IMG/VR virus record: IMGVR_UViG_2737471838_000004
Location: 1 to 55,334 of that record
Length of the DNA: 55,334 bases
Origin: a virus
Taxonomy: Duplodnaviria > Heunggongvirae > Uroviricota > Caudoviricetes
Reading direction: 5' to 3' (one strand)
In this document: in pieces, positions 4,268 through 53,437 of the stretch
Position numbering within the stretch: the first letter of the stretch is position 1
Layout of the letters: each line of letters opens with the position of its first letter
Notes under the pieces: generated by a model
The model's database searches: none
What the model was told of the DNA's origin: nothing
Seen by the model: the letters and a program-made list of their open reading frames with translations, nothing else
Made by a program: the position numbers and the translations under genes

Positions 4268-4516
4268 ATGAAAAACATGTTCAAAGTGGTATTATTCGCT
4301 GCGGCTGTTGCTCTTACTGGTTGCGCTGTTGACAAAGATGCTGCATTGCACAACCTGCCAAATAGCGGAGTGATTCCGCAAGAAATTGTCTATGATGCTA
4401 ATGGTCATCTTGTCTATGACACTGAAAAACTTCCGTATACTGGACAATGGTGTCATGAACTCGATCACAACATGCGCCGCATCGGTAGCCCGTCGAATTG
4501 TGTAGCTAACTACTAA
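4268..4516 (+). CDS. small secreted lipoprotein (moron, opposite strand to tail genes)
   Basis: 82 aa; signal peptide MKNMFKVVLFAAAVALTGC with lipobox LTGC; AGGA RBS; own terminator; located between J and stf. Confidence 0.6.
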   Translation: MKNMFKVVLFAAAVALTGCAVDKDAALHNLPNSGVIPQEIVYDANGHLVYDTEKLPYTGQWCHELDHNMRRIGSPSNCVANY

Positions 4517-4520
4517 AAGA

Positions 4521-4550
4521 AAACCCCGCGCGAAGCGGGGTTATTTTTTA
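4521..4550. terminator. bidirectional rho-independent terminator (ends lipoprotein gene on + and J on -)
   Basis: stem CCCCGC/GCGGGG with GCGAA loop, T-tract TTATTTTTT on +, A-run upstream giving T-tract on -; J stop codon lies in the T-tract. Confidence 0.6.
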
Positions 4551-11896: not shown

Positions 11897-12052
11897 GTGA
11901 CAGATTATGAAAAATAGAAGTTTTGGCGCTAATAATAATGGGACTGATAGTATTTGGCGTTCATGCTGCCGATTGGGACTGGGCGGCGATAGCCAATAAT
12001 ATGGCGCACGCACACCCAATGAGTTTGCTGTATATTAACTACTAAAAGAAAA

Positions 12053-12080
12053 CCCCGCACGAAGCGGGGTTGTTTTTATA
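12053..12080. terminator. bidirectional rho-independent terminator, near-identical to the one at 4521..4550
   Basis: stem CCCCGC/GCGGGG, loop ACGAA, T-tract; about 41 bp including the preceding AACTACTAA shared with the 4509..4550 site (2 mismatches). Confidence 0.6.
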
Positions 12081-12276
12081 CACCATCAACCAAAAATAAA
12101 ACCTCCTTGCCTTCCCTGGATCTGCATCCTACATACCCATCACCAACATCATGAAGATACCATGTATCGCCATTGTCAGCCTTTACAGTAAGGTCGTTGA
12201 TCTCGTAGTCGTCAAATAATGTAAAAGCGTCAGTTTTGTCCACTACACAAGTCCCGTACATAACAACCACCCCCAA
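12076..12276 (-). CDS. hypothetical small protein downstream of M
   Basis: 66-aa ORF immediately after M on the same strand. Confidence 0.35.
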   Translation of the reverse strand: MGVVVMYGTCVVDKTDAFTLFDDYEINDLTVKADNGDTWYLHDVGDGYVGCRSREGKEVLFLVDGV

Positions 12277-13230: not shown

Positions 13231-13533
13231 GGTGAAATATGGATGACGATAAATTCACCTGGCGGGAGATCTGGAACATCTGGCAGGTGATGTTTGCTCG
13301 CAGCTACATAGCAAGAAACGGCAGGTTGTGATTTGCGGAGGAAAATAAAATGAAAAACCCGGCAAATAAAAGCAATGTAAAACGTATGGCATGGGTGCTA
13401 AAATATATGGATAGCAAAGGGGATACATATACATGTCCATTTTTCAGGTATACTGACGCGGTGTTTACAAGAAGTGTACACGGAGGGAAAATTGAGAGAG
13501 GATATACAAGATTTGAGAATAACTAAAAGATAA

Positions 13534-13560
13534 CCCCGGCATTGTACCGGGGTTTTGTTT
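13534..13560. terminator. bidirectional rho-independent terminator (cassette C / tape measure gene)
   Basis: stem CCCCGG/CCGGGG, loop CATTGTA, T-tract TTTTGTTTATTTG; preceded by TAAAAGATAA. Confidence 0.55.
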
Positions 13561-19071: not shown

Positions 19072-19258
19072 TTTTCGGATGGGTTTTCGCCACGCGCGGG
19101 CAGAGAATTACCCATTCGCCAGCGTCATTGAGATATGCCGCCACCTGCCGCCCGGTATCAGTCTGCACCCACACGCGGGTGAACAGCTTCGGTAATAGCG
19201 GCTTCGGTAATGTAAGGTCATTCCACATTGCTACATCCTCCCGCTCTTGCCTATCCAC
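19043..19258 (-). CDS. hypothetical small protein
   Basis: 71-aa ORF overlapping neighbours in head-tail block. Confidence 0.3.
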   Translation of the reverse strand: MDRQEREDVAMWNDLTLPKPLLPKLFTRVWVQTDTGRQVAAYLNDAGEWVILCPRVAKTHPKIVKWSYGYE

Positions 19259-19617
19259 AGCCCAGCGTGCGCGGTATTCTGTGGATCTGCCGGAACCAAT
19301 TCAGCGGTGCAGTGATGTTTATCGAGGGAGTAAAGCAACGAATAGGCTGCTTTCCATTTTTGGTTGAAATCGACATATCGGTATGACTGGCTTGCGCCGT
19401 TCGTACCAGTATGCGAGGAAACGTATTTGTTAGCCTGGGTAAGTCCTAACAGGCCAATCAGGTAAAGTTGAATTAATGTTGCAGTGGAGGCCGGATAGTT
19501 GGCATCAAGGCATTCGTTAACGCTGTTTGCCTGCTCCACCAGCAAGGATAAGATAACGTCTGGCAGGTCAATACCCTGGCTTTCAAGATATTCCCGCGCC
19601 TGTTCTGTAGTGACCAT
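19231..19617 (-). CDS. head-tail connector (gp6-like) protein
   Basis: ORF 19231..19632 trimmed to MVTTEQAREY with GGAGAAG RBS; first gene after the capsid terminator. Confidence 0.5.
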   Translation of the reverse strand: MVTTEQAREYLESQGIDLPDVILSLLVEQANSVNECLDANYPASTATLIQLYLIGLLGLTQANKYVSSHTGTNGASQSYRYVDFNQKWKAAYSLLYSLDKHHCTAELVPADPQNTAHAGLWIGKSGRM

Positions 19618-19639
19618 TTGTCTTCTCCACATACAAAAA

Positions 19640-19668
19640 AAATCCCCGGCATCGCGCCGGGGAGTTAC
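19640..19668 (-). terminator. rho-independent terminator after major capsid gene
   Basis: CCCCGGC GCGAT GCCGGGG hairpin followed by TTTTTTTT on the minus strand. Confidence 0.55.
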
Positions 19669-19681
19669 AGGAAATTTATAA

Positions 19682-20734
19682 TTAAGATTGTTTGCCGTAA
19701 ACGACTCCGGAACGGCCCAACATGTCGCAGGTGATTTGTAAACCTTCGGCAGACATGATTTTGAAATTGTAGTTATCGGTAGGCATGGTGCGAGGAACAG
19801 GCACTACGCCAGTAGTCATACCGATCAGCGGGGTGATGACATCACGGCGGCGCTGATAAGCAATGATTTCGTTGCCTTTCAGTGCAAAGCTCTGACGAAT
19901 TTCACCAACAGGTGCGAACGGCATAACAGTTTTGAGCACGCTACCAACAACAGCACCGTTAACGATGTGCGGGCGGGCCAGGTTAGCCATAATTTCAGGT
20001 GACACCCACATGACATCATATTTTGCAACGAAGTTATTGCGGGCCAGAACACCGAATTCACCAATGGTGAAGAAGTTGATCAGTGCGTCAAATTGCGCAG
20101 TGGTCAGGTCAGTGGTCAGGGTCAGTTGTTGGGTGTTTTTGTGGTTTTTAATGCCCATTGCTTTATGACCATCAACAACCATTGCGTCATTACCTTCAAG
20201 GTAGAATTTAACGCGGCGTTTGTTGAATTTTTTCAGTTTCAGGCGCTGACTGTCCAGGGCAAGGTCAATGCCCACAGTGTTTAAGCCATGAGCTAAACGC
20301 CAGTTGACACCGTAACCAGCGGTAAACATCGGGATCGGGTCGCCATCGCTGCCGTATTCTGTGTGATCAAAGCCGTGCGGTGCCTGGCCATCCATAGACA
20401 TCACGACCTCATCGCTAATGTCGCCGGATACGCTGTACATTTTCAGCGTTTTACCGATAGGCAGTACGGTTTGAACACCCATCAGGTCGTTGACGATTTC
20501 GATGCCGATTTCTTCGGTGTTCAGTTCGATGATCTGGTTATCAATTTCTTTCCAGAACTCTTGAGCGAAGCCACCAACAGCGTTGCAGGCCAACATTTCA
20601 GCGGTCATGTTTGCCTTATTTGCAGTAATCATGGCGTCATGTTGAGCGTTAAAGATATTACGTTGCGCCCACAGTTCATTCCAATGGCCCTGCATACGGG
20701 CGTTGGTAGCGAGGTTTTCTTTAGTAAAGTACAT
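19682..20734 (-). CDS. major capsid protein
   Basis: 350 aa; position after decoration/scaffold genes and followed by a strong terminator. Confidence 0.8.
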   Translation of the reverse strand: MYFTKENLATNARMQGHWNELWAQRNIFNAQHDAMITANKANMTAEMLACNAVGGFAQEFWKEIDNQIIELNTEEIGIEIVNDLMGVQTVLPIGKTLKMYSVSGDISDEVVMSMDGQAPHGFDHTEYGSDGDPIPMFTAGYGVNWRLAHGLNTVGIDLALDSQRLKLKKFNKRRVKFYLEGNDAMVVDGHKAMGIKNHKNTQQLTLTTDLTTAQFDALINFFTIGEFGVLARNNFVAKYDVMWVSPEIMANLARPHIVNGAVVGSVLKTVMPFAPVGEIRQSFALKGNEIIAYQRRRDVITPLIGMTTGVVPVPRTMPTDNYNFKIMSAEGLQITCDMLGRSGVVYGKQS

Positions 20735-20751
20735 GTTTTTCCCCTTTTAAA

Positions 20752-21123
20752 TTAAGCTACGCGAACGCGGATGAAGTCTTCAGCTTCCAGTTTCACGTCT
20801 TCCTGGCAGTACGCGACAGTAACTTCGTTTACCTGGATGGCCTGATCTTTGGTGTAAGTACCAAGTGCAACGCGCATTGCGAATTCGCGGCCTGTTTCAA
20901 AGTAGTCAGCAACAACGGTTTCATTCGTTGCGATGGCATCGGCGATGGTTTTGCCTTCATGGAAAGCAGGGTTAACGATATACAAGCGGCCTTCTGCTGT
21001 GGTCGCTTTAACAAATTTACCGCCTTCCAGTTTAACCAGTTCACCAGGTTTTAATTCAGCACCAGCGAGGCGGGTTTCAGTGATGGATTTACCATCAATA
21101 TTTACACGACGAAAACGAAACAT
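20752..21123 (-). CDS. head decoration protein
   Basis: 123 aa; gpD-like size and position directly upstream of capsid gene. Confidence 0.5.
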   Translation of the reverse strand: MFRFRRVNIDGKSITETRLAGAELKPGELVKLEGGKFVKATTAEGRLYIVNPAFHEGKTIADAIATNETVVADYFETGREFAMRVALGTYTKDQAIQVNEVTVAYCQEDVKLEAEDFIRVRVA

Positions 21124-21139
21124 TGTGATCCCCTTTTAA

Positions 21140-22474
21140 TTAGAAATAGGTGTTAAAGTCTGGTACTTCGCCTTTTTTACCTTCGCTTGCTGCGTTGGTA
21201 GCCATCGGCGCGGCTTTGCCCAGGGATTTAAACATTGCATCGAGCGCATCGCCGCTTAATGCGTTAGCAACAATTTCGCCGTGAACTTTTGCTACTGCGG
21301 CGCGTTTTTCTTCGACTTCTTTATCTGCTTTGGCGGCAATTTCTTTTTTAATTGCTTTCTGGTTGGTCTGCAATTCTTCTACGCTTGCCTGTACTGGTTT
21401 TAATGCCTCTGCTACTGCATTAGCGATATTGGCTGCTAAGCCTTCGTTAATTTCTTTTACCAGTTCGGCGCGTTCTTCAGGTGTTAAAGGCATGTCGGTT
21501 TCCTCTTTCTTATTGGCCTGGATTTTTTCTTTCAGGATGAATAAATCGGATAGGTGTTCAGCGAATTGAGTAAACCAGGATTTCGATTCCTCGTTAGTTT
21601 GCAGTTCGCCATCATTGAGAATTATTTTACCAGCCTGTTTTTTGTATGTGCAAACTTGAGCAATTTCACGTTGTTGTGCTTCATGATATACACCATCGAC
21701 CAGGATGCCACCATCATAAGCACAATAAACGTAGCTTACTTGTTCGTCATTGAAGTCATGAATATAAACGTAGTCGGCGTCTTTATGTTTTTCTTGGAGC
21801 GCTGCGTAAAGCATTTTCTCTGTGGCACGATAGCTACCCTCCATCATCGCTTTTTGTGTCAGTGGTCTGGCGGTTGCGGTATTAACCATCAGGCCAACCC
21901 CCTGTTCCGGTGATGCGGCGGGCGGCTCATGCAGTAAAATAGCGTCATGGTCGATCGACATAATTTTAACAACGCTGTCAGCACCCTGGGCTTTCATCTC
22001 TTCCGTAGCTGGCATACGTTGACGATATACGGCGACGGATGACCAGATCGGATCTTTGCTTTCGCCTTTTTCCAGTGCTTCAAGTCGGCTCAATAACTCG
22101 CGGCCCTGTTCTGAATGGCTGGCGGTTTCAACATCAACCCATTTTTCCACATAAACACGATTGCCGCGTAATTCAACATTTCTGTTCCATGCGCCGCAAA
22201 AACCAATATTCAGTCCTTCCGGGCTAAATGCGGAAACGAATTCACCGTTAACCGTAGGATGGCCCAGCGGTGCGAGCGTACCTTCCAGAGATTGATAATT
22301 AGCAATGATTTCAGCTTCCGGGTAATATTCCCGATTCATAACGATATTAAAGGGCAACGTATAAGACGGGACTACAATGTGTTCGCGCCCGTTATATGTT
22401 TCCCGGCGGATGGTATTAGCGGTTAATTTGGTATTAACCTGAATCAGTTCTTTATTCACGGTTTTTACTCCCAA
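21140..22474 (-). CDS. putative scaffolding / prohead maturation protein
   Basis: 444 aa; Ala/Lys/Glu-rich helical C-terminus; located between MuF-like and decoration genes. Confidence 0.45.
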   Translation of the reverse strand: MGVKTVNKELIQVNTKLTANTIRRETYNGREHIVVPSYTLPFNIVMNREYYPEAEIIANYQSLEGTLAPLGHPTVNGEFVSAFSPEGLNIGFCGAWNRNVELRGNRVYVEKWVDVETASHSEQGRELLSRLEALEKGESKDPIWSSVAVYRQRMPATEEMKAQGADSVVKIMSIDHDAILLHEPPAASPEQGVGLMVNTATARPLTQKAMMEGSYRATEKMLYAALQEKHKDADYVYIHDFNDEQVSYVYCAYDGGILVDGVYHEAQQREIAQVCTYKKQAGKIILNDGELQTNEESKSWFTQFAEHLSDLFILKEKIQANKKEETDMPLTPEERAELVKEINEGLAANIANAVAEALKPVQASVEELQTNQKAIKKEIAAKADKEVEEKRAAVAKVHGEIVANALSGDALDAMFKSLGKAAPMATNAASEGKKGEVPDFNTYF

Positions 22475-23361
22475 TCTTCGCCATATTTAGCGTGCGCAAC
22501 CTTATAGTTTTCTTGCGCCCGATCTAATATTCGTTTGTTTAATATATTACCGTATTCGTCAACTAATACGGTAATCGTGCTACATTTGCAGTTAATTGAA
22601 TTAGGGGATTTGCTCCACCATTCGCGCTGCTCTTCTATGGTGTATGTTTTCCCGTGCCGCTGTGCGTGTGACAGCCTGGTAGTCGGTGACAATGCCGAAA
22701 TGTGCATCTGCATAGTGCGCAAGTTAAGCTCTTCAGTAGCCGCTTCTGCCTCATCCATACGCGCTGTGCGCAACGCTGTGCATATTTCAGTACGGGCAAT
22801 ACGTTTGCACCTGTATAGCGGTAATTGCGTTTCCTGCTGCAATGTGCGCGCTATTTCGAGTGGGTTTAAGCCACGGGCCATGCCTTCGGTTAATCGGCGG
22901 GCCATATCCTTCTTGATCTGTGCCGTCAGCCCGCGCATCTCTTCAAATACACGGGTACGGACCAGGGCAAGGCGCGTGCGATAGGTCTGGCTGGTTAATA
23001 CCGCCGACACTTCAGGGTAAGCCCTGGAATATGTGACTGACTGGTTAGCAAGGTTGGCATATTCCTGTGAAGTGCCGCGCTGATATGCCACTTTCACGTA
23101 TTCCTGCCAGAACCAGAAGTTCTCCGGGTCTGTTAACTCGAATATTTCATCAATCATGTCGCTGGCGTCTTCCAGCAAGTCATGTAATTCGTCAATGTAG
23201 ATCTGAAAGGTGTATTTCTTATTAACAGCCAGGCTGTATTGCATTCTGTCCAGTATGGCAATATACGGATCCGCAACTTTCTTCAGGCAGGCTTTAAAAC
23301 GCTTGATAGCGCCCGAACGTAACTTCCCTGTCATGGTCGGGTCTTCGGTGTTAGATGGCAT
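22465..23361 (-). CDS. phage head morphogenesis protein (Mu F / SPP1 gp7-like)
   Basis: ORF 22465..23409; C-terminal region typical of MuF-like minor head proteins; directly downstream of portal. Confidence 0.65.
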   Translation of the reverse strand: MPSNTEDPTMTGKLRSGAIKRFKACLKKVADPYIAILDRMQYSLAVNKKYTFQIYIDELHDLLEDASDMIDEIFELTDPENFWFWQEYVKVAYQRGTSQEYANLANQSVTYSRAYPEVSAVLTSQTYRTRLALVRTRVFEEMRGLTAQIKKDMARRLTEGMARGLNPLEIARTLQQETQLPLYRCKRIARTEICTALRTARMDEAEAATEELNLRTMQMHISALSPTTRLSHAQRHGKTYTIEEQREWWSKSPNSINCKCSTITVLVDEYGNILNKRILDRAQENYKVAHAKYGEDWE

Positions 23362-24742
23362 TATCGCGGCTGGAGGTATTCGCCTGATTATCTTCTTCAC
23401 CTTCATCATCGTTTTCCTCTTCCGTTTCCACTACACTGGCAGGGCCATCGTATCCGGCAGCCTCGCGGATCTCGTCACCGCTAAATATTTCTTCACCAGT
23501 AGCCAAACAAGCCTGATTGATTTGTGCCATTTTGTGTGCCGCTTCCAGTAGTTCGGCTTTGGTCATGGCGTTCAGGTCGTCCCATATCACTGATACGTCA
23601 ATTGGCATACTGATAAGGCGGAGATCTGCCATCTTGCTGAATAGATCCTCAAGTTCACCGCCGATTTCCTCCCTGCGGGTCATACAGCGGCTGTTGAAGT
23701 AGCGGAGGTCTTCGGTTGATGCGCGTTCGCCCTGCTGGTTCCCAACCAGGATGCGAGTCGGAATATCAATACCAGCGGCGGCGGTTTGCAGGTTGACATC
23801 ATAGGTTGCTGACGGGTCAGATACGGCAGTCACCAGCGGGCTAACTGTGGCCCCTTGTAATGCCATCATCACGTCGTTACCCTTATTCATTTCATCCGCT
23901 GCCTCGTTGAATTTTTCTCGAAGCTCTGTGACGTCGCATCCGTATGTGGCTGCCAGTGACCGGAAGTCAATATCCTTGTCGAACGAGATAGCTAACTGGC
24001 GGGCAGCGTTTTTCAGGAATGATTCACCGCTACCCCCTTCCACTTTCTCAAGCGACACAAAGGCGTTATATGACGGCTCAAGGAAGGCTATTGCATCATC
24101 AGAATAGTCACCGAAGATGAATATGCGGTCAGGGTGGATCCTTCTTGCTATGGTCTTACTGTTAATGCGTTCCTTGTACTCCCACCACGTCGGCAGGCCA
24201 TAGTTTTCATTATCCGGGTTTTCTTCGAAGTCCTTCGGCGTCAGAGCACCAGCCCATGCCGGGGTAAATTTGGCAATGCCTACGCCTTTTGTCACAGGCT
24301 GGTCCCACGCCTTACCATCTCTGACATGAATCAACAGGCCAGCATAACGACCGATGAGGCGGCGGCGGTCACATTCGGCAATGACGCGCCAAAATCTGTT
24401 GTCGAACTGTTTCTTGATTTCTCTTTCCCAGGGTGTTTCCTTTTCGGCCTTCTCGTCTTCGGTTCCCTCGATTAGCGTTGGCATGGTTCTCCAGCAGGTA
24501 GTGACAATCTTTTCTACAGCACCATGAGCGATACCACCGCGACGATACAGCTTGTATAGATCGTCATAGGTTATTTCTTCTTTGAATCCGTATTCACTCC
24601 ACGCAGCATCACGTTTGGCATCTATCCCCATAGTGAATGGGTGTGCTGCGGCATAGCGGGCGTAGGCCGCCTGGCGTTGAGACAAGGCAGCATTAACCGC
24701 CAATTCTAAATTGGATGGCATAATGTTTACTCCTGAATACAT
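23351..24742 (-). CDS. portal protein
   Basis: 463 aa; acidic C-terminus, position after TerL; start may be ATG at 24721 (AGGAG RBS) rather than 24742. Confidence 0.75.
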   Translation of the reverse strand: MYSGVNIMPSNLELAVNAALSQRQAAYARYAAAHPFTMGIDAKRDAAWSEYGFKEEITYDDLYKLYRRGGIAHGAVEKIVTTCWRTMPTLIEGTEDEKAEKETPWEREIKKQFDNRFWRVIAECDRRRLIGRYAGLLIHVRDGKAWDQPVTKGVGIAKFTPAWAGALTPKDFEENPDNENYGLPTWWEYKERINSKTIARRIHPDRIFIFGDYSDDAIAFLEPSYNAFVSLEKVEGGSGESFLKNAARQLAISFDKDIDFRSLAATYGCDVTELREKFNEAADEMNKGNDVMMALQGATVSPLVTAVSDPSATYDVNLQTAAAGIDIPTRILVGNQQGERASTEDLRYFNSRCMTRREEIGGELEDLFSKMADLRLISMPIDVSVIWDDLNAMTKAELLEAAHKMAQINQACLATGEEIFSGDEIREAAGYDGPASVVETEEENDDEGEEDNQANTSSRDNAI

Positions 24743-24799
24743 GTTTACGCGTTGCTACGCGAAAAATAGAAAAACTTGTTGGTAGTTGTGAGGCAGATT

Positions 24800-26284
24800 T
24801 TAAAATCCGCGCAGGCGCTTCGGTAACATGAGGCCCATCGCCTGTGGCTGGCTCAGTTCGGTAATGCCCCATACCATTGCGTCCATACGGTCAGGGGATT
24901 TTTTGGCGGTAGCTGGCACGTATTCCATCATTTGATTTTCCAGCGTGTACAGTTCACCAGTGTGGGCCACCCTTCCTTGTGCATACAGTGCAGATATTGG
25001 TTCGGCGCGGGCGAATTTACCCTTGCTTGCGTGTACCTTAACAATGCGGCCTTTGAATCCTGCATTGCGTAGCGTGGCCTCTGCCATTTCACCGCCCTGG
25101 TTGGTTTCGATAACCATCGCGTCAGCCTCATGAATGTCGTATGCGCTCATTGCTGCTTGCGCCCAGGCATTAGGGGACATGCGGCCTGAGTAGTCACCAT
25201 CAACAGAATACTGAGCATTTTTACCGCCACCGTAAGCGGAACATGCAACGATCCCCGTTTCGTCCGATTCTTCCGATGATGTTGTAGCCGGGTCGATAGC
25301 TATTACCGTGCGGATCTTGTCCTGCGTTATCTGCATCCGGTGCGCTGCGGTTATCATGGCTTCAGTCCACAATGCACCCTCTTCGTCGAATTTACGCGGG
25401 CGCTGCATGTACTGGGCCTCAAATGACCGCCTGTGTGCTTTCAGTCCAGCTTCATGATCGTCATTATGTTTCCTGGGCCACAGCCAGCCATCAGGCAGGT
25501 TGTGAGCAATAGGGATGGCGAACTCGTTTTCAGGGTACAAATCCCAATAGTCAACGCTGTTGTCGATCTTCACTGGCAGGTTCAGGTGATACCACTTTTC
25601 CCCGCTCCCACCGCGTAACAGGTAGCCGGACAAATCATCGTAATGGATGCGCTGCATAATGACGATAACAGGCGTCGTTTGCACTGCCAGACGTGACGCA
25701 AGCGTGTCGTTATAGTTGGTGTTTACCTGCTTTCTCACTACGTCAGAATAAGCGTCAGCAGGTTTCAATGGGTCGTCGATGATTAACGCGCCGTTAAATC
25801 CTGGTTCCATATACCCGGCACGGAACCCAGTTACCTGGCCAAGCGATGAGGTCGCGTACACGCCGCCACCGTATTCTGTCCACCACATAGATTTACTGTT
25901 GGCATCATTGCGGATCTTCATGGGCCACATTGCCTGATATTCAGGCGTGCAGATCATGTTTCTTACAGTCGAGGAATTTAGTAATGCCAGGTTGTTGGAA
26001 TAGGAAACGTGAAGGAATCGTGTGCGGGGATTTATTGCGAGGGACCGCGCCATCATGTTGATAGTTGCGATCATGGTTTTGCCGTACCCTGGAGGGATGT
26101 TAATGATGAGTCGGGTTATCTCACCATTGACAACGCGTTGCAGTGCGTCGCGGATAGCTAAATGATGGCCTGAGATTAACATCTTCGTTCCGTTCGCTTG
26201 CTTGTAAAAGTAGCGATTGAAAAACAGGCCATCGTTTTCACATTTGGACTGAATTACTCGTTCTCTGATTGTCAGCATAATCAC
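24800..26284 (-). CDS. terminase large subunit
   Basis: 494 aa; Walker A-like PPGYGKT, ATPase and nuclease regions typical of TerL. Confidence 0.9.
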   Translation of the reverse strand: MIMLTIRERVIQSKCENDGLFFNRYFYKQANGTKMLISGHHLAIRDALQRVVNGEITRLIINIPPGYGKTMIATINMMARSLAINPRTRFLHVSYSNNLALLNSSTVRNMICTPEYQAMWPMKIRNDANSKSMWWTEYGGGVYATSSLGQVTGFRAGYMEPGFNGALIIDDPLKPADAYSDVVRKQVNTNYNDTLASRLAVQTTPVIVIMQRIHYDDLSGYLLRGGSGEKWYHLNLPVKIDNSVDYWDLYPENEFAIPIAHNLPDGWLWPRKHNDDHEAGLKAHRRSFEAQYMQRPRKFDEEGALWTEAMITAAHRMQITQDKIRTVIAIDPATTSSEESDETGIVACSAYGGGKNAQYSVDGDYSGRMSPNAWAQAAMSAYDIHEADAMVIETNQGGEMAEATLRNAGFKGRIVKVHASKGKFARAEPISALYAQGRVAHTGELYTLENQMMEYVPATAKKSPDRMDAMVWGITELSQPQAMGLMLPKRLRGF

Positions 26285-26766
26285 ACCTCGTCTTCTACTT
26301 CCTGGACGATGCGGGCGATCTCTTCTTTCGTGACTTCCACCTGGACGGGCGCTTCTTCCTTGTTGCCTACGATCTCCTGTGTGACGCGCTCGCCATACTT
26401 ACGCGGTTGCAGTTTTGCTAATAGCCATTTACGAGTTTCAATCATCAAATGGTGTCTGTTCAGTTCTTCCTTTTTGATGTTCTCTGGCGCGTCAGCAAGG
26501 TCGATGATCTCATCAGCTAACACCTCGAAGCCGATCTCCTTCGCGCGCATATACATGTCCGAAAACTCCGGCACATCTCTGAACCACTTGAGGATTGTTG
26601 AACGTGCAGGCATACCAGGCATCTTCGAAATCTTGTTAATACTTTCGCCGTCCGACACAAGCTCGCAGATCTCCAATGCCTTTTCTTCTGAATAGCCATG
26701 TGGACGGCCCACCTTTTTGGCTGCTGGCTTTTTATCGTCAGCATTTGCCTTTTTAGTGCGGGCCAT
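26281..26766 (-). CDS. terminase small subunit
   Basis: 161 aa; N-terminal basic region plus HTH (ICELVSDGESINKISK), overlaps TerL start. Confidence 0.8.
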   Translation of the reverse strand: MARTKKANADDKKPAAKKVGRPHGYSEEKALEICELVSDGESINKISKMPGMPARSTILKWFRDVPEFSDMYMRAKEIGFEVLADEIIDLADAPENIKKEELNRHHLMIETRKWLLAKLQPRKYGERVTQEIVGNKEEAPVQVEVTKEEIARIVQEVEDEV

Positions 26767-26776
26767 ATTTCACCTC

Positions 26777-26860
26777 TCAATATTTATTGATGATATATAC
26801 GCAAGCAACAAAACTTGCACAGTATGTTAATACTTCCAACCAGTCGAATAGCTCTTTCAT
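26777..26860 (-). CDS. mini-protein, single hydrophobic helix (27 aa, MKELFDWLEVLTYCASFVACVYIINKY)
   Basis: hand-translated; ATGA overlap with preceding mini-gene; directly upstream of terS. Confidence 0.35.
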   Translation of the reverse strand: MKELFDWLEVLTYCASFVACVYIINKY

Positions 26861-27000
26861 TGTTTACCCTTGAATCTCTGTTTTGATTCTCTGTAAATAA
26901 GCCCGGTAATCATTACGATCACGTATACGCATAACATTAACGCGATAATAAGCACGCCAGAGCAAACTAAGAACATTAACAGATCGATAAACTCAAACAT
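26857..27000 (-). CDS. mini-protein, single hydrophobic helix (47 aa, MFEFIDLLMFLVCSGVLIIALMLCVYVIVMITGLIYRESKQRFKGKQ)
   Basis: hand-translated; AAGAGG RBS. Confidence 0.4.
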   Translation of the reverse strand: MFEFIDLLMFLVCSGVLIIALMLCVYVIVMITGLIYRESKQRFKGKQ

Positions 27001-27010
27001 GATTGCCTCT

Positions 27011-27082
27011 TTACATAATCGTAAACGCCCAGGTAATAAGGACGATAGCTAAAACCATGTATATAAAATCTGACTCTCTCAT
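27011..27082 (-). CDS. mini-protein, single hydrophobic helix (23 aa, MRESDFIYMVLAIVLITWAFTIM)
   Basis: hand-translated; AAGGTGG RBS. Confidence 0.35.
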   Translation of the reverse strand: MRESDFIYMVLAIVLITWAFTIM

Positions 27083-27097
27083 ATTGTTCCACCTTGT

Positions 27098-27142
27098 TTA
27101 CGCGAAGAAAACAATAACAACTAACAGCGTGCATATAGCCAT
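27098..27142 (-). CDS. possible micro-ORF (14 aa, MAICTLLVVIVFFA)
   Basis: hand-translated; weak RBS; may be non-coding spacer. Confidence 0.15.
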   Translation of the reverse strand: MAICTLLVVIVFFA

Positions 27143-27158
27143 GATTAAGAAATCACCG

Positions 27159-27233
27159 TCAGACATTTATAATAAACCCCACAATAACAACCGCCGCGAT
27201 ACATACGAATAATACAGCTTCGATAGTTTCCAT
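27159..27233 (-). CDS. mini-protein, single hydrophobic helix (24 aa, METIEAVLFVCIAAVVIVGFIINV)
   Basis: hand-translated; AGGTGA RBS. Confidence 0.35.
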   Translation of the reverse strand: METIEAVLFVCIAAVVIVGFIINV

Positions 27234-27241
27234 ATATTCAC

Positions 27242-27310
27242 CTATTGAGTCAGCGCGGTCATGGTAAGAACAATCGCAACGATCAGGAAAAAGAAATCAA
27301 GCCATTTCAT
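27242..27310 (-). CDS. mini-protein, single hydrophobic helix (22 aa, MKWLDFFFLIVAIVLTMTALTQ)
   Basis: hand-translated; GGGAG RBS; ATGA overlap with upstream mini-gene. Confidence 0.35.
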   Translation of the reverse strand: MKWLDFFFLIVAIVLTMTALTQ

Positions 27311-27387
27311 TTTTTAAACTCCCGGTATACGTCCACGGCAATAACTACAACTACAGCCACCAGCAATAGCATTTCATATGCGTTCAT
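27307..27387 (-). CDS. mini-protein, single hydrophobic helix (26 aa, MNAYEMLLLVAVVVVIAVDVYREFKK)
   Basis: C-terminal part of ORF-track entry 27307..27492; AGGTGA RBS before internal ATG. Confidence 0.4.
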   Translation of the reverse strand: MNAYEMLLLVAVVVVIAVDVYREFKK

Positions 27388-27395
27388 GCTTTCAC

Positions 27396-27470
27396 CTATA
27401 CAACGTTCTTCCACCAGAAATAGATAATGACGGCGACCAACGACCACCAGATGAGATCGTAAATATTCAT
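27396..27470 (-). CDS. mini-protein, single hydrophobic helix (24 aa, MNIYDLIWWSLVAVIIYFWWKNVV)
   Basis: hand-translated; GAAGG RBS. Confidence 0.35.
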   Translation of the reverse strand: MNIYDLIWWSLVAVIIYFWWKNVV

Positions 27471-27481
27471 GGTGAATACCT

Positions 27482-27568
27482 TCAGCTTTCAATGAATATC
27501 ATGATCGCCAGCCATACAGCGACGCAGGCAGAAAGGATAATGAGCGGGTCAATCATATTGTCACCCAT
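27482..27568 (-). CDS. mini-protein, single hydrophobic helix (28 aa, MGDNMIDPLIILSACVAVWLAIMIFIES)
   Basis: hand-translated; abuts previous mini-gene. Confidence 0.35.
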   Translation of the reverse strand: MGDNMIDPLIILSACVAVWLAIMIFIES

Positions 27569-27664
27569 CTAATATTTGCTCTTTACGGTTATCAGCACGG
27601 CAATAACAAAGCCAACCAGAAATACAGATATACCCATCAATCCGGCAATGGTGCTCTCGTCCAT
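27569..27664 (-). CDS. mini-protein, single hydrophobic helix (31 aa, MDESTIAGLMGISVFLVGFVIAVLITVKSKY)
   Basis: hand-translated; GGGGGTGA RBS; start 2 nt after stop of the HExxH gene. Confidence 0.4.
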   Translation of the reverse strand: MDESTIAGLMGISVFLVGFVIAVLITVKSKY

Positions 27665-27666
27665 AA

Positions 27667-28209
27667 TCACCCCCGCTTAAAGCTCATAACACGCGGTACA
27701 AGCGCTTCTTTTGCTTTAGCCTTGCGTTTCCCTTTCTTCGCTGTTTTTTCTTCTTCCTTCGGCTGTTCTGCCTGTTCTAATGCCTGCTCAACGACTTCAG
27801 CCGCCTGCATTGCCGCTACCTGTGCTTCGTTTGATTCTGCCAGGATCGGGAAGAATGCATCAAAGATGCGGCCCACCATGTAAGCGTAAGTCTCATTCGC
27901 CGGATGAGATGGATCAGTGGTAGCCACGACGCCTACATCGCTTAAAACGTGAAATGTAGTGTGCGCCGCTTCATGGACCAGTGTTCCTAACTCATTGTCG
28001 AATACTGCGATCACGTAGAAGTTACCGCCTTTCTCGCCAGTGCAAGTAAGCGTCAATCCTCCTGCCAGTTCGAAATCAGGTTCGATCGGAATTCCTGCCT
28101 TTTCGCAAAATTCATAAAACATCTCGCGGGTCGGGCAAAAGAAAACGGTTGTATGCTCAAAGAGCGGTACTTTGAATTGAGGCAATTTAATGCCTTTAGC
28201 CTTAGCCAT
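27667..28209 (-). CDS. HExxH-motif protein (putative zinc metallopeptidase-like) with Lys-rich C-terminal tail
   Basis: 180-aa ORF with AGGAGA RBS; motif LVHEAAHTTFH; C-terminus KEEEKTAKKGKRKAKAKE. Confidence 0.5.
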   Translation of the reverse strand: MAKAKGIKLPQFKVPLFEHTTVFFCPTREMFYEFCEKAGIPIEPDFELAGGLTLTCTGEKGGNFYVIAVFDNELGTLVHEAAHTTFHVLSDVGVVATTDPSHPANETYAYMVGRIFDAFFPILAESNEAQVAAMQAAEVVEQALEQAEQPKEEEKTAKKGKRKAKAKEALVPRVMSFKRG

Positions 28210-28487
28210 CAGAATAATCTCCTATTCTGAAAAATATAACCCCCGCAAAACTCGACACCGCAGGGAGTGAAAACAGCTATAAAACACTGAAAACGGCGCT
28301 TCATCAGTACCGTTTCCAGAATTTTATAAAATTGGTGAATGGCGCTTTCTTCTACCCAGGTAGCGCCATACCTGTTAATGAGGTTGTTTACCCGGTATTA
28401 CGTGTTTTTGAATTTCCGCCGTCGCTCGCGGGAAGGATTGGCCCGGTTATGGCTGGCTGACAGAAACGGCGACACGTCAACGCGCTG

Positions 28488-28976
28488 TTATTCTTTGCGT
28501 AAGCACTGCGTTTTGATGTATCCCTGAAGCGCGGTTATCTTCGCATCCTTCTCTTTCAGTTGTTCTCTGAGGGATAGATAAGCCGATTCAGCGTCGGGAG
28601 TGAGTCTACAGGCGGCTCCATCAATGGCGCTGGCGGATCCGGTGGAGTCGGACACTCGCACAGGTGTTGCGTTGACGCGCAACCGGATAGAACCGTTATC
28701 AATGCCAGTGCGCAGATCGGCAATGTCAGATCTGATAGCTTTAATTTCATCGTGATACCTCTTATCAAGTTTTGACAGTTCGGCGTTTAGCTCCTTCATC
28801 TGCTGAATAGTGTTACTTGCTGTTTTCAGTGCGCCTTGCGTGGTCGTTAATTCTTCCTGTAACCTTGTCGCCTCACTCTGGTAATAGCATGTTACGGCGG
28901 TAAGGCTGGCAATGATGCAAACAACAGCGGCGATGATTAACGCCTTCACCTTGTCCACGTTTCCCCCCATTCGCAA
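28488..28976 (-). CDS. Rz: i-spanin (Rz-like)
   Basis: 162 aa; N-terminal TM helix, coiled-coil periplasmic domain; embedded +1-frame lipoprotein ORF. Confidence 0.8.
28556..28750 (-). CDS. Rz1: o-spanin (Rz1-like lipoprotein) embedded in Rz
   Basis: ORF 28556..28768 trimmed to MKLKLSDL; lipobox LSGC, Pro-rich ([14 protein letters not shown]); entirely within Rz in another frame. Confidence 0.7.
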   Translation of the reverse strand: MKLKLSDLTLPICALALITVLSGCASTQHLCECPTPPDPPAPLMEPPVDSLPTLNRLIYPSENN

Positions 28977-29437
28977 ACGGCATATTCAACCTCGCGGCGG
29001 TTTACCAGGCCTTGCCACTTCTTACCGCCAGCGTATACCCAGCGCTTAAGCTGTGCGCACGCCTCTGATTTCTTGCCGTCATTGAGCAGTTTTAATAAGG
29101 TTGATGTTTTGAAGTTGGTCGCGCCTACGTTATAGGCGAATGAATAAAGTGCAGCGCGGGTGAAATCTGATATTTCGACTTTGATATATGGGTCAATCGC
29201 TTTTGCGGTCTTGTGTAGATCTTTATTTAACAAAGCATCGCATTCTGATTGCGTGTAAGTCTTGCCAAGCATGATGTCTTTTCCGACGTGTCCATAACAT
29301 ATCGTGTAAACACCGATGACATCTCTGTATGGCTTATACTCAACGCCTTCAAGGTCTTTTATCATCACCCCCGCAATAGCGATCGCCCCACCAGCCGCCG
29401 CCGCAACAATCTTGTTTTTCAGCGATTGGCTAATCAT
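28946..29437 (-). CDS. SAR endolysin (T4-lysozyme-like glycoside hydrolase)
   Basis: ORF 28946..29518 trimmed to [25 protein letters not shown] (signal-anchor-release segment), then lysozyme-like region; follows holin by 1 nt. Confidence 0.8.
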
Positions 29438-29438
29438 G

Positions 29439-29639
29439 TTACTTATTCCCCATTCGTGCGTCGTGTTCCTCTTGCGCCCGCTTATTCTCCTGTGATTTGA
29501 AGTAATAATTAACGGCAAATGTGCCTATGGTTGATAAGATACCCACAAAGACGGCAATGTCATTGATGGTTATCGCGCCGAAAAAAGCAGTTACGGCCCC
29601 GGTCACATACGCACACGCCTCCCGTATTCTGTCGAACAT
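29439..29639 (-). CDS. holin
   Basis: 66 aa; two hydrophobic helices and charged C-terminus; GGAGG RBS; first gene of lysis cassette. Confidence 0.7.
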
Positions 29640-29655
29640 AGATTTACCTCCAACA

Positions 29656-29682
29656 AAGCAAAAACCCGGCGCGGGGCCGGGT
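29656..29682 (-). terminator. terminator hairpin immediately upstream of holin (tR'-like)
   Basis: CCCGGC CCCGC GCCGGG hairpin followed by TTTTTGCTTTG on the minus strand. Confidence 0.5.
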
Positions 29683-29710
29683 AGTTACAGTTTCGCATTG
29701 TTAGGTAATA

Positions 29711-29739
29711 TTTTAATCTGTTTGTTTTCGACCCACAAA
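29711..29739 (-). promoter_or_regulatory. candidate late promoter (PR'-like; TTGTGG-17-TAAAAT)
   Basis: good -35/-10 with 17-bp spacer about 25 nt upstream of the terminator and about 70 nt upstream of the holin start. Confidence 0.4.
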
Positions 29740-29806
29740 TACGGCTTTACTGCTTTCTGTATATCAGGCCATTATCAAGTAGCATTTGCATGTGCCAACG
29801 ATCCAT

Positions 29807-29923
29807 CATACTTGATTCCCAGCATAGTTTTTCTGGATCCTGAATCATCACCTTGTCACCCTTAACCAGATAAGCGATGTTAAATAACATGTGCAAATAG
29901 ATGCCGTCTTCGATCTCGTTCAT
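29807..29923 (-). CDS. hypothetical small protein (38 aa), tandem paralog of next ORF
   Basis: hand-translated MNEIEDGIYLHMLFNIAYLVKGDKVMIQDPEKLCWNQV; ATGA overlap with upstream ORF. Confidence 0.3.
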
Positions 29924-34319: not shown

Positions 34320-34500
34320 GCTTGTAAATTTTGACAGGCTTAATAGGGATGGCAGGCAATTCGCCTTCGTTTAACGCGCTTGCCATGCCCAATATTAAAC
34401 GCGCTTCCGCACCAGTTACTTTCTTACACCATGCACCGCCTGTTTTATCTTCGAACAAGATAACGGCAAATTGATCGTTTATTTCCAGCTTATCCATCAC
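34297..34500 (-). CDS. hypothetical protein
   Basis: 67-aa ORF, ATGA overlap with the Q-like gene stop. Confidence 0.4.
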   Translation of the reverse strand: MMDKLEINDQFAVILFEDKTGGAWCKKVTGAEARLILGMASALNEGELPAIPIKPVKIYKRGDDDEA

Positions 34501-35219
34501 TCACCCCGCGTCACTCGTTTAATTTCGTTATCCGCCCGCGCCTCTTCTTTGAACAATTCAGCAATGGCGTCTTCATAGAAAGCGCGGTATTTCTTCCACC
34601 ACGTTGATCGGCTTACCGGGAAAACAAGCTGATTAACCTCCTGCCGGACAAGATCTACAGGGAAACGCGAGTACCCGCGCCCGCCGCAGTGCTGGCACGT
34701 TTTGAAAACTGGCATTTCCGCCGCTTCACTGGCTGCTTTATCCGGTACTTCGCCACGTCCCTTGCATTGTTTACAATGATTGCGAACTGTCCCATGCCCC
34801 TTGCATTTTTTGCAAAGGTGTTTTTCCCCGTATTCGTCAAACGTAAATTTATATCCGCCGCACTCCATACAAGTTTTTTCCGTCGCGGCACTCTGGCAAT
34901 AATCACGAAACGCGAAAACGGCAACAAGAATAATGAGATCATTGCGTTGTGCCTCGTCCAGTTCCATAACGTATTTATAGTCTTTTGCCATAGCTCTTAA
35001 ACGCTCTGTAAGCAAAACTACGGCCTTATGTTTTTCGGCTTGTGATAGTTCCATCTTCCCTAAAAAAGCGCTATAACCAAGCTCTACGCGCGATTGCGCC
35101 ATACCCGCAGCGGTTAGCGCATCCGTTGTATTAAGCACATCCGGGGACGTGCCCCGGCTTTCGTCTGATAATCGCGGTGATTTGGGAAAGTGGAATTTTA
35201 GAATTGATTCTAAATTCAT
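34497..35219 (-). CDS. Q: putative late-gene antiterminator Q (zinc-finger type)
   Basis: 240 aa; Cys cluster CMECGG...CKKCKGHG...CKQCKGRG...CQHCGGRG; located downstream of rusA/ninG as in lambdoid phages. Confidence 0.5.
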   Translation of the reverse strand: MNLESILKFHFPKSPRLSDESRGTSPDVLNTTDALTAAGMAQSRVELGYSAFLGKMELSQAEKHKAVVLLTERLRAMAKDYKYVMELDEAQRNDLIILVAVFAFRDYCQSAATEKTCMECGGYKFTFDEYGEKHLCKKCKGHGTVRNHCKQCKGRGEVPDKAASEAAEMPVFKTCQHCGGRGYSRFPVDLVRQEVNQLVFPVSRSTWWKKYRAFYEDAIAELFKEEARADNEIKRVTRGE

Positions 35220-37081: not shown

Positions 37082-37240
37082 AATGCTCTCTCCTTTTCAG
37101 GTGATTTCTACGCATTTCAGCGCTGCCGGATTTTTAAAGAGCATTTCGTTTGCTTGAAGTATACAAAATGGATACACCATAACAAGACAAAAAGCGCCAT
37201 TATGTGATCCGCATCACGCAATGACGCCATTTTGTAAATT

Positions 37241-40736: not shown

Positions 40737-40835
40737 TTTGGCTTCCTCCGCACCGTAAACCTTTTGATTTCGGCTTACAAAACGGATATGCGATCACAAT
40801 ACAAAATGTATATTTATGTGATCTGAATCACTCGG

Positions 40836-46276: not shown

Positions 46277-47305
46277 ATGAGTATGCGGCTAATGGTCGAG
46301 GTATTCCATACTGAGGTCGGGAACCCAATGCACAAACTAGTGCTGTTGAAGTTAGCTGATAACGCTAATGATAACGGCGAGTGTTACCCTTCTTACCATC
46401 ACATAGCAAAGGAATGCGAGATCAGTAAGAGTACAGCAATGAGGGCTGTCGACGCACTTTGTGAAAAAGGTCTATTGATTAAACAACCAAGATACTTAAT
46501 CGGAGGAAAGGAGCAAACGAGTAACTTCTATGTGATAGTTCTGCCATCATTGCAGGGTAGTGTCACAGTGACACCGGGGGTAGTGTCAGAGAGACACCAG
46601 GGTAGTGTCACAGTGACACCGGGGGTAGTGTCAGAGAGACACCAGGGTAGTGTCACAGTGACACCGGGGGTAGTGTCAGAGAGACACCCTAATCAGTCAT
46701 ATATAACCAGTAAAGAGAACATTAAGAACAATACACTTCGTGTATTGGAAAAAGACGAGTCTATCAGCGAAGAAGATCGGGTGGCTGATTTGGCAGCGTC
46801 GCGCGTACTCGATCACTATAACAACAAGTTTAATAGCAAGCATAAGGAGAAAAAATACTTTGTTAACCTACTGAAGAAGACAAAAACACGAGGCGCATAT
46901 ACTGAAGAAGATTTGATCATGGTTATCGACTGGATAGCGGAAACATGGTCGTTTAAACCGGAACCGATAAAGATCGCCAGGGTAAGCCGCTTTGATGAAT
47001 ACCGGGCAAAGGCTGAACAATGGCGAAGAGTTACAGCTACTGTAAACGCTGCCGATGTGGTGGAAGAGTTTAACATCACGTTTGATGGACTGTTGCCACC
47101 TGCCGAACTTGATCGTGATCTTGAACGCAAGATCTATGCGTTCACTGACTACCTGAAAGACAAAAGCATTAACGGCTTTATCGCCTACTTTGAAGCGTTC
47201 AAAAACACGGCTTCAGATTTTTACTTCGGCAATGGCTTCACTGCGACACTTGATTTCCTGCTTAAACCAAAAACGCTACGTGATACACGCGCTGGCGCTC
47301 TTTGA
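46277..47305 (+). CDS. replication initiation protein (lambda O-like) containing internal iteron array
   Basis: 342 aa; N-terminal HTH domain, linker encoded by 3 x 45-bp direct repeats (QGSVTVTPGVVSERH x3), C-terminal domain. Confidence 0.7.
   Translation: MSMRLMVEVFHTEVGNPMHKLVLLKLADNANDNGECYPSYHHIAKECEISKSTAMRAVDALCEKGLLIKQPRYLIGGKEQTSNFYVIVLPSLQGSVTVTPGVVSERHQGSVTVTPGVVSERHQGSVTVTPGVVSERHPNQSYITSKENIKNNTLRVLEKDESISEEDRVADLAASRVLDHYNNKFNSKHKEKKYFVNLLKKTKTRGAYTEEDLIMVIDWIAETWSFKPEPIKIARVSRFDEYRAKAEQWRRVTATVNAADVVEEFNITFDGLLPPAELDRDLERKIYAFTDYLKDKSINGFIAYFEAFKNTASDFYFGNGFTATLDFLLKPKTLRDTRAGAL
46553..46687 (+). repeat. origin iterons: 3 tandem 45-bp repeats, each two about 22-bp sub-iterons with internal dyad GTGTCAC..GTGACAC / GTGTC..GACAC
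   Basis: perfect tandem copies of CAGGGTAGTGTCACAGTGACACCGGGGGTAGTGTCAGAGAGACAC inside the O-like gene, followed by an AT-rich stretch. Confidence 0.8.
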
Positions 47306-49580: not shown

Positions 49581-50073
49581 TTTATTTACCTATAGTGACG
49601 GCGTTCTATATTGGTCTTGTAATCGTGCAAACAACAAAATAAAAGCAGGTAGCGTGGCTGGATGTAAACATTATCGCGGATATTGGACTGTACGCGTTAA
49701 TGGTATTTGTTGCACATGGCGTCACCGCATTATCTGGGAAATGTTTAACGGCCCTATTCCTGATGGAATGGAAATAGATCACATAAATCATGTACCTGGT
49801 GATGATAGAATCGAAAACTTAAGGATGGTGACAAGGAAGGAGAATAACAGAAACAAAACAATGCCATCAAGTAACACTAGCGGATGCGTTGGCGTTACGT
49901 GGAACAAGAAAACCAATAAATGGCGTGCGCAAATAGGTATAAGGGGGTCTGATGGGAAAAAGAAAACAATATACGTTTATTACGGTGACTCATTTGATGA
50001 TGCCGTAAAAGCAAGAAAAGAAGCTGAAAGAATGTATAACTTTCATAGCAATCACGGCATTTCTTTACCATGA
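49570..50073 (+). CDS. HNH homing-endonuclease-like protein (HNH + AP2-like)
   Basis: ORF 49465..50073 trimmed to MWDDLFTYSDGVLYW; IIWEMFNGPIPDGMEIDHINH...NLRMVT. Confidence 0.75.
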   Translation: MWDDLFTYSDGVLYWSCNRANNKIKAGSVAGCKHYRGYWTVRVNGICCTWRHRIIWEMFNGPIPDGMEIDHINHVPGDDRIENLRMVTRKENNRNKTMPSSNTSGCVGVTWNKKTNKWRAQIGIRGSDGKKKTIYVYYGDSFDDAVKARKEAERMYNFHSNHGISLP

Positions 50074-52986: not shown

Positions 52987-53437
52987 TTGGCATTATTACT
53001 TTGAATATAGGGAAGGATTTTTGTATTGGAAGGTGAATCCTTCATGCAAAATAAAGGCTGGAGCATTGGCTGGAAGTTTCAGCCATCGCGGATACATGAA
53101 GGTAAGCATAAATAAAAGGCGTTATTATGTTCATCGGATTGTTTGGGAAATGCACAACGGCCCAATCCCTGTTGGGTATGAGGTGGATCATATAGATAGG
53201 AATCCATCCAATAATTTAATTCAGAATTTACGCCTTGTTACTCATAGGGTTAATATGAGGAACCAACCTCCTAAGACTAATAGCGGATGCATGGGTGTAT
53301 CATGGTATAAAGCATATAATAAATGGCAGGTTAGAATTAAAGTTGATGGTGTTACTTTATTTATAGGGTATTTTGAAAAATTAAGTGACGCAATAAATGC
53401 GAGAAAGGAAGCTGAATCTAAGTATTGGGGGCAATAA
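52979..53437 (+). CDS. HNH homing-endonuclease-like protein (HNH + AP2-like)
   Basis: 152 aa; YVHRIVWEMHNGPIPVGYEVDHIDRNPSNN...NLRLVT. Confidence 0.75.
   Translation: MVDWHYYFEYREGFLYWKVNPSCKIKAGALAGSFSHRGYMKVSINKRRYYVHRIVWEMHNGPIPVGYEVDHIDRNPSNNLIQNLRLVTHRVNMRNQPPKTNSGCMGVSWYKAYNKWQVRIKVDGVTLFIGYFEKLSDAINARKEAESKYWGQ

Follow-up and report, generated by a model that had tools for sequence, protein, structure and literature searches.

In the late control regions of phages lambda and P22, the gene for the antiterminator Q lies directly upstream of the late promoter, whose −10 element is followed 6–7 nucleotides (nt) later by an AACNNT sequence, and an intrinsic terminator stands ahead of the lysis genes. 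Lambda-type Q is loaded at a qut site near the promoter, and no signal is required at the individual terminators; in lambda, the polymerase pauses at +16/+17, where it is engaged by Q, and the late leader is 194 nt long. The P22 record annotates the late promoter, the qut site, the 5′ end of the transcript and the terminator tR′, with the first A of AACGAT given as the probable 5′ end of the late RNA and a Q-antiterminated late terminator placed about 30 nt past the late transcript start. A second type of late terminator, found after the most expressed structural gene in the late operons of tailed phages (post-capsid terminators), combines a strong hairpin with a U tract. Here, we investigated two terminators, referred to as site 1 and site 2, in a 55,334-nt stretch of viral DNA (positions 1 to 55,334 of IMG/VR record IMGVR_UViG_2737471838_000004; the whole stretch is called the window), which represents an mEp021-like (mEpimmI) temperate phage of Escherichia coli. 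Both are located on the minus strand within the late transcription unit, site 1 after the gene for the probable major head protein and site 2, about 10 kb upstream of it, before the holin gene, in agreement with a preliminary description made from the sequence.

The 11.5 kb around both sites were found to be 87–94% identical to seven mEpimmI phages (mEp554, mEp044, mEp010, mEp515, mEp013, mEp021 and MagusPhagus), and homologous terminators occupy the same positions in these relatives, one ahead of the holin gene and one behind the head gene, the surrounding 84–106 nt being 89–99% identical. The mEpimmI group consists of Nus-dependent temperate coliphages (PMC11893012). The late promoter and the terminators of sites 1 and 2 are not discussed in that paper; according to one of its figure legends, terminators t1, t2 and t5 of mEp021 were demonstrated experimentally (PMC11893012), t5 not being mappable to site 1 or 2.

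The two sites share a sequence that extends beyond their stems. On the minus strand, CTGTAACTCCCCGGC (19670..19656) and CTGTAACTACCCGGC (29690..29676) are equal in 14 of 15 bases and each runs into a strong hairpin, which bears out the flanking motif reported for both terminators in the preliminary description. The CCCGGC portion of that motif is indeed shared, and it belongs to the 5′ arm of the hairpin at both sites rather than to the flank; the independent similarity is therefore that of an 8-nt flank (the word CTGTAACT) and a 6-nt stem arm. Exactly two copies of the 15-mer CTGTAACTNCCCGGC are present in the window, the next-best matches having three mismatches, and a repeat finder recovered the pair unprompted as an ungapped match of 29 out of 38 bases (76%). 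In an alignment of the cassettes that starts 12 nt ahead of the word and ends at the following start codon, 38 of 69 columns were identical. Common to both are the word, the stem arm with its 5-nt loop, the T tract, the GGAG of the ribosome-binding site and a distance of 24–25 nt from hairpin to ATG. Outside the word, stem, T tract and GGAG, the two intergenic regions are unlike each other. As word, stem, loop length, T tract and a GGAG about 25 nt before the start codon are all shared, common descent is the best explanation, and we consider it probable (about 0.6) that these two genuine late-operon terminators descended from one duplicated terminator-plus-ribosome-site cassette.

The principal alternative is a chance resemblance, namely that two GC-rich terminators of independent origin happen, in this lineage, to agree in stem and 8-nt flank. 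This was assessed by local alignment of terminator 5′ halves (12 nt of flank plus the stem arm), with the 3′ arm left out of the score because it depends on the 5′ arm. As a control set, 185 distinct terminator-like sites were taken from unrelated contigs of viruses and bacteria (about 0.72 Mb) and compared in 16,997 pairs; the control scores can be inflated by homologous contigs and by the two strands of one bidirectional hairpin, and both effects were corrected for. The pair formed by sites 1 and 2 scored 13, while the best non-homologous control pairs reached 12, mostly via poly-A. Only three of the 16,997 control pairs scored 13 or more, all of them from homologous contigs, and none of 495 comparisons of terminators in the window with unrelated ones reached the observed score. 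The per-pair chance probability is below approximately 2 × 10−4, which corresponds to ~0.01–0.02 when corrected for the 45–105 terminator pairs in the window. A similarity limited to the GC stem and attributable to chance, as envisaged in the preliminary description, was thus not what was found, since the flank is included and control pairs score lower. The word was absent from the other eight strict minus-strand terminators of the window. Its genome-wide abundance (five copies of CTGTAACT versus 0.95 expected) was also considered and set aside as uninformative, the other copies (4043+, 7879+ and 47029−) being located inside coding sequence and lacking a hairpin.

To sample relatives independently of the motif, contigs were retrieved through homologues of the head protein (48 loci) and the holin (52 loci). 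At site 1, the word was found as CTGTAACT in 35 of 45 related contigs, as CTGTAGCT in eight, and as CTGAAACT and CTGTGACT in one each. At site 2, 46 related contigs carry TTGTAATT (23), CTGTAACT (18) or TTGTATTC (2), with the rare alleles TTGTATCC, CTATAACT and GTGTAACT occurring once each. The same 8-mer is present at both sites in only 12 of the 43 contigs holding both, and in most relatives the flanks match at six or fewer of the eight bases (the TTGTAATT, TTGTATTC and CTGTAGCT alleles). Combinations of alleles are unrestricted: CTGTAACT at site 1 goes with TTGTAATT at site 2 in 15 contigs, and CTGTAGCT at site 1 with CTGTAACT at site 2 in five. No co-variation of word alleles between the sites was detected among the 43 contigs. 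In mEp021, mEp515 and MagusPhagus the site 2 flank is TTGTAATT, and the exact match seen in the window is absent there; exact 8/8 identity of the word is a state of the window's lineage and not of the phage family. These counts favor a chance resemblance, as does the fact that CCCGGC is a common type of stem arm. In addition to the control scores, however, the agreement in loop length and in distance to the next start codon argues against it, and even the least similar pair of major alleles (6/8 flank bases and an identical stem arm) gives, by a rough calculation, ~0.01 after correction. The match exceeds chance and, for an observation made post hoc among many terminator pairs, we regard a chance origin as unlikely.

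With a stem-loop, a U-rich tract and a conserved stem at each position, both sites are judged to be genuine Rho-independent terminators, and a terminator scan of the region from 15 to 34 kb ranked them first and second. The hairpin of site 1 (T-CCCCGGC-GCGAT-GCCGGGG-A; 19663..19643, minus strand) has eight pairs, a 5-nt loop and a fold energy of −17.5 kcal/mol, and its T tract is followed by GGAG and an ATG at 19617. That of site 2 (A-CCCGGC-CCCGC-GCCGGG-T; 29682..29664, minus strand) has seven pairs, a 5-nt loop and a fold energy of −17.2 kcal/mol; it continues into TTTTTGCTTTG from 29664 and is followed by GGAGG and the holin ATG at 29639, the ribosome-binding site of the holin gene being located 10 nt past the T tract. 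The homologue of site 1 is annotated as a terminator in mEp021 (TERM_7), mEp554, mEp044, mEp010, mEp515 and mEp013, and that of site 2 in mEp021 (TERM_5) and four other relatives, where the annotations outside mEp021 are ARNold predictions. Site 1 resembles the post-capsid terminators of tailed phages in its strong hairpin and U tract and, like them, leads at once into the ribosome-binding site of the next gene; we take it to be a member of this class, for which both attenuation and stabilization of the mRNA 3′ end are possible roles.

The stem arms are identical at both sites in the 45–46 related contigs and the seven phages, and without any compensatory changes this constitutes conservation, not covariation. 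The loops are more variable, with four alleles at site 1 (GCGAT, GCAAT, ATCGC and ATCAC) and at least nine alleles of the 5-nt loop at site 2 in 46 contigs (homologues L175–L220). Two of the site 1 loops, GCGAT and ATCGC (homologues L138 and L001), are reverse complements of each other, which suggests an inversion of the loop at a perfectly palindromic stem. At site 1, the head-gene stop codon (TAA at 19684..19682) precedes the word by 12 nt; the spacer between this codon and TTTC-CTGTAACT is hypervariable and contains indels, and the sequence from 19674 into the next gene is nearly invariant. At site 2, 37 distinct relatives show almost no variation across the block 29726..29640, and the flanking genes vary; within the block, word positions 1 and 7 and the loop are the least conserved bases. 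The TGTA core of the word is nearly fixed at both sites. Strong purifying selection therefore acts on the hairpins, but not on the full 8-mer.

A longer fold was observed at site 2 (29630–29730, minus strand; −29.5 kcal/mol, z = −3.9), in which GCGAAA and AACAA upstream of the word pair with UUUUGC and UUGUU downstream of the hairpin, CCU pairs with part of the holin Shine-Dalgarno sequence, and CUGUAACU remains as an 8-nt bulge between two helices. This fold has no counterpart at site 1, where no pairing of the word with downstream sequence was found, and sequence variation at site 2 is too low to judge the pairing.

The near fixation of TGTA raises the question of whether a functional cis signal, formed by the word or by its TGTA(A) core, is placed directly 5′ of both late hairpins, for example a pause or Q-engagement sequence, a ribonuclease processing site, or a protein-binding site tuning termination or read-through. 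The position of the word at site 2, +13..+20 on the alignment presented below, where lambda-type Q engages the paused polymerase, and its exposure as a bulge in the longer fold would fit such a role. So would the conserved block at site 1, which begins only 4 nt upstream of the word, beside the hypervariable spacer; a boundary this close to the word also fits some constraint on the word itself and in that respect counts against simple drift of the flank after duplication. Positions 1 and 7 of the word are, however, the most variable bases of the site 2 block, the alleles at the two sites do not co-vary, and in the single case compared, the site 2 allele varied independently of Q: the Q of mEp021 is 96% identical to that of the window, yet mEp021 carries TTGTAATT at site 2. 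Site 1 furthermore lacks a promoter or pause context and is preceded by the hypervariable spacer, the word is missing from the other eight minus-strand terminators, no Rfam match was obtained, and the cassette was found only in the mEpimmI family (see below). We therefore view a cis signal, too, as an unlikely explanation. The proposal in the preliminary description that the shared motif might be a recognition element for antitermination is not supported for these reasons, the main mechanistic argument being that nothing needs to be recognized at each terminator under a lambda-type Q. With respect to a nut/put-type site at each terminator, neither a conserved word at the eight other minus-strand terminators nor an Rfam match was found. 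Readings of the word as a LexA box, boxA or IHF-type site were compared by eye with the consensus sequences and dropped.

Common descent followed by drift of an unconstrained flank plausibly fits all the data. One cassette of ~40–55 nt would have been duplicated, after which selection kept the stems and the flank drifted by a few transitions. The same genome provides a precedent for the copying of cassettes in three related terminators at 4522–4542, 12051–12071 and 13532–13554, from which it appears that terminator cassettes do get duplicated in this lineage. The duplicated terminator module put forward in the preliminary description is the favored explanation, and the match goes beyond both the GC stem and chance. 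A match of 15 bases is nevertheless too short to prove a duplication, and the ancestral state of positions 1 and 7 (C or T) in the site 2 flank is unrootable.

The three terminators of this second family, which is unrelated to sites 1 and 2, are nearly identical and bidirectional (AACCCCG...CGGGGTT) and have shared flanks, TAACTACTAAAAGAA, on the plus strand; the copies at 4507–4566 and 12036–12095 are 85% identical over 60 nt. They border plus-strand open reading frames (ORFs) that are inserted in the minus-strand tail gene region and are moron-like.

The relatives also bear on the possibility that the shared sequence is a linker at module-exchange boundaries, kept as a marker of mosaic junctions. 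Upstream of site 1, head-gene alleles at 75–95% amino-acid identity are followed by the hypervariable spacer, upstream of site 2 entirely different genes are found, and the downstream side is nearly invariant at both sites, all of which would be expected of such boundaries. The junction at site 2, however, is located about 35 nt upstream of the word (near 29727) and not at the word, 15 bases are too few for efficient homologous exchange, and recombination between the direct copies would delete the lysis, packaging and head genes. A linker function is thus very unlikely.

Apart from its resemblance to site 1, site 2 was compared to the late control regions of lambda and P22. The 107 nt from 29640 to 29746 (minus strand) form the only conserved non-coding block between the Q gene and the holin gene, the apparent gaps near 31.3 and 30.3 kb being filled by short ORFs, and its conservation exceeds that of the genes flanking it. 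The site 2 region was aligned by MAFFT, without guidance, with the regions downstream of Q in lambda, P22 and the Salmonella phage S149; a candidate −35, a candidate −10 and an AACNNT sequence of the window fell in the same alignment columns as their counterparts in the three phages (Table 1), and the AACAAT of the window is invariant in 37 distinct relatives. The block is, somewhat more probably than not, a late promoter with a sigma-dependent pause element and a tR′-like terminator. On this alignment, the late transcript would start at 29702, the word would occupy +13..+20 and the hairpin would follow from +21, so that the terminated RNA would measure ~45 nt. A leader this short has a precedent in P22, where tR′ follows the transcript start by about 30 nt.

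Table 1. Features of the window at and around the two terminators. Promoter, pause and leader positions are proposed from the alignment.
Feature	Position	Strand	Remarks
Proposed late promoter and pause element	29738..29697	−	MAFFT alignment; inference
Candidate −35	29738..29733	−	window TTGTGG; S149 TTGCAA; lambda/P22 TTGACT
Candidate −10	29715..29710	−	window TAAAAT; S149 TATCAT; lambda/P22 TAAATT
Candidate −10-like pause element	29702..29697	−	taken as +1..+6; window AACAAT; S149 AACAGT; lambda/P22 AACGAT
Site 1 flank word CTGTAACT	19670..19663	−	last T is the outermost hairpin base
Site 1 intrinsic terminator	19663..19635	−	stem 19663..19656 / 19650..19643, loop GCGAT, eight T at 19642..19635
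Site 2 flank word CTGTAACT	29690..29683	−	would be +13..+20 of the proposed late leader
Site 2 intrinsic terminator	29682..29659	−	stem 29682..29676 / 29670..29664, loop CCCGC, T-rich tail
Probable major head protein gene	19682..20734	−	Pfam DUF6260; PHROG 771 'virion structural protein' (head and packaging)
DUF7370 gene, downstream of site 1	19231..19617	−	likely start ATG 19617, GGAG before it
Holin gene, first downstream of site 2	29439..29639	−	Pfam Phage_holin_2_3; annotated as holin in mEp021 and MagusPhagus
58-amino-acid ORF upstream of site 2	29747..29923	−	poorly conserved; ends 56 non-coding bases before the word
Late antiterminator Q gene, lambda-type	34497..35219	−	Pfam PF03589, E = 1e-28

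The Q protein encoded by the window shares 34% sequence identity with lambda Q over the full length (BLASTP, E = 2e-47) and carries an extra zinc-finger-like insertion relative to it. Homologues outside the mEpimmI family are at most 39% identical (e.g. in the Salmonella phages SF10 and S149), and the homologue in mEp021 bears the annotation of a putative late gene regulator Q. The minus-strand genes are arranged in the order Q, ~20 small ORFs, holin, endolysin, spanin, terminase, portal, head genes and tail genes. The window thereby resembles lambda and P22 in having a lambda-type Q, a −10 followed 6–7 nt later by AACNNT, and an intrinsic terminator ahead of the lysis genes. It differs from them in that Q is not encoded directly upstream of the proposed promoter, in the weak or absent −35, in a terminator that leads directly into the holin ribosome-binding site, and in a proposed leader of ~45 nt compared to ~60 nt in P22.

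Several of these differences weigh against the assignment of a late promoter at site 2. The sequence TTGTGG-17-TAAAAT matches the consensus at eight of 12 positions and went unreported by a promoter scan, and no −35 is recognizable in approximately one third of the relatives, which have a different upstream gene and include MagusPhagus. The Q gene, ending at 34497, is 4.8 kb from the proposed promoter (~29738), with the ~20 small ORFs in between. Furthermore, the best match to the sigma70 consensus near the holin gene is TTGGCA-16-GATAAT (29798..29771, minus strand; 10 of 12 positions), and the literature searched contained no transcript, termination or Q data for this phage. TTGGCA-16-GATAAT is situated inside the 58-amino-acid ORF, is not conserved, and is absent from relatives with a different upstream gene; in the window's own genome it is a rival location for the late promoter.

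If the site 2 region is a compact late control cassette as in lambda and P22, with site 2 as its promoter-proximal terminator, unmodified polymerase, whether initiating at the late promoter or arriving from upstream, would stop there. Once Q has accumulated, it would modify the polymerase at the promoter-proximal pause into a terminator-resistant form. In this form the polymerase would pass site 2, transcribe the lysis and head genes, and continue through site 1 and the terminators of the tail region. Site 1 would likewise stop unmodified polymerase and probably protects the 3′ end of the head-gene mRNA. A bolder version, in which a TGTAA-centred word is a working late-operon signal and the post-capsid terminator a partial copy of the late leader (from +13 onward) that reuses it, and in which, separately, the Q switch operates 4.8 kb from the Q gene with a ~45-nt leader, is a long shot.

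The distribution of the shared sequence was examined beyond the window. An exact scan of IMG/VR for the 15-mer returned at least 120 matches in at least 119 stretches. Among the matches listed, every one of the 44 with a terminator behind it belongs to site 1 or site 2 of this phage family. L008 is a further copy of such a site, truncated where its contig ends, and the remainder lie in coding sequence and are due to chance. BLAST searches with each site against 50,697 phage records retrieved only the seven mEpimmI phages, at one place each. The pattern TGTAAYT-N-CCCGGC-N5-GCCGGG, searched in one genome per bacterial species, gave 12 scattered matches in unrelated taxa and no related cassette. 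Rfam yielded no match at the gathering score, and permissive thresholds retrieved generic terminator hairpins of small RNAs only. In the databases scanned, the cassette appears confined to the mEpimmI phage family, and the similarity between sites 1 and 2 was not mentioned in the literature searched.

Regarding the genes adjoining site 1, the product of the head gene also shows a weak match to a major head protein family, and the DUF7370 gene is annotated as a 128-amino-acid form in relatives. Elsewhere in the window, three perfect tandem copies of a 45-nt unit, CAGGGTAGTGTCACAGTGACACCGGGGGTAGTGTCAGAGAGACACC, were found at 46553–46688, each with an inverted repeat of the GTGTCAC.GTGACAC type. 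The array is located inside a plus-strand ORF (46277..47305) and resembles origin iterons in a replication initiator gene, as in lambda O. On the plus strand, 49722–50037 and 53131–53425 share three collinear segments of 70–75% identity, about 3.4 kb apart, which hints at a pair of paralogous genes close to the window's right end. In the early region, 37149–37217 and 40763–40831 form a 69-nt direct repeat (71% identity), which may be equivalent to the similar nut sites or operator regions that have been reported for mEp021-like phages.

The resemblance of sites 1 and 2 is a minor trait of terminators that are of an ordinary kind and were annotated before, and it matters little beyond annotation. 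For annotation, the analysis settles which are the two main terminators of the late operon in this phage, and it illustrates how a conspicuous short match within a single genome may prove mostly lineage-specific once relatives are compared. For the mEpimmI group, the comparison points to a likely, so far undescribed cassette of late promoter, pause site and tR′, and narrows it to a target of 107 nt.

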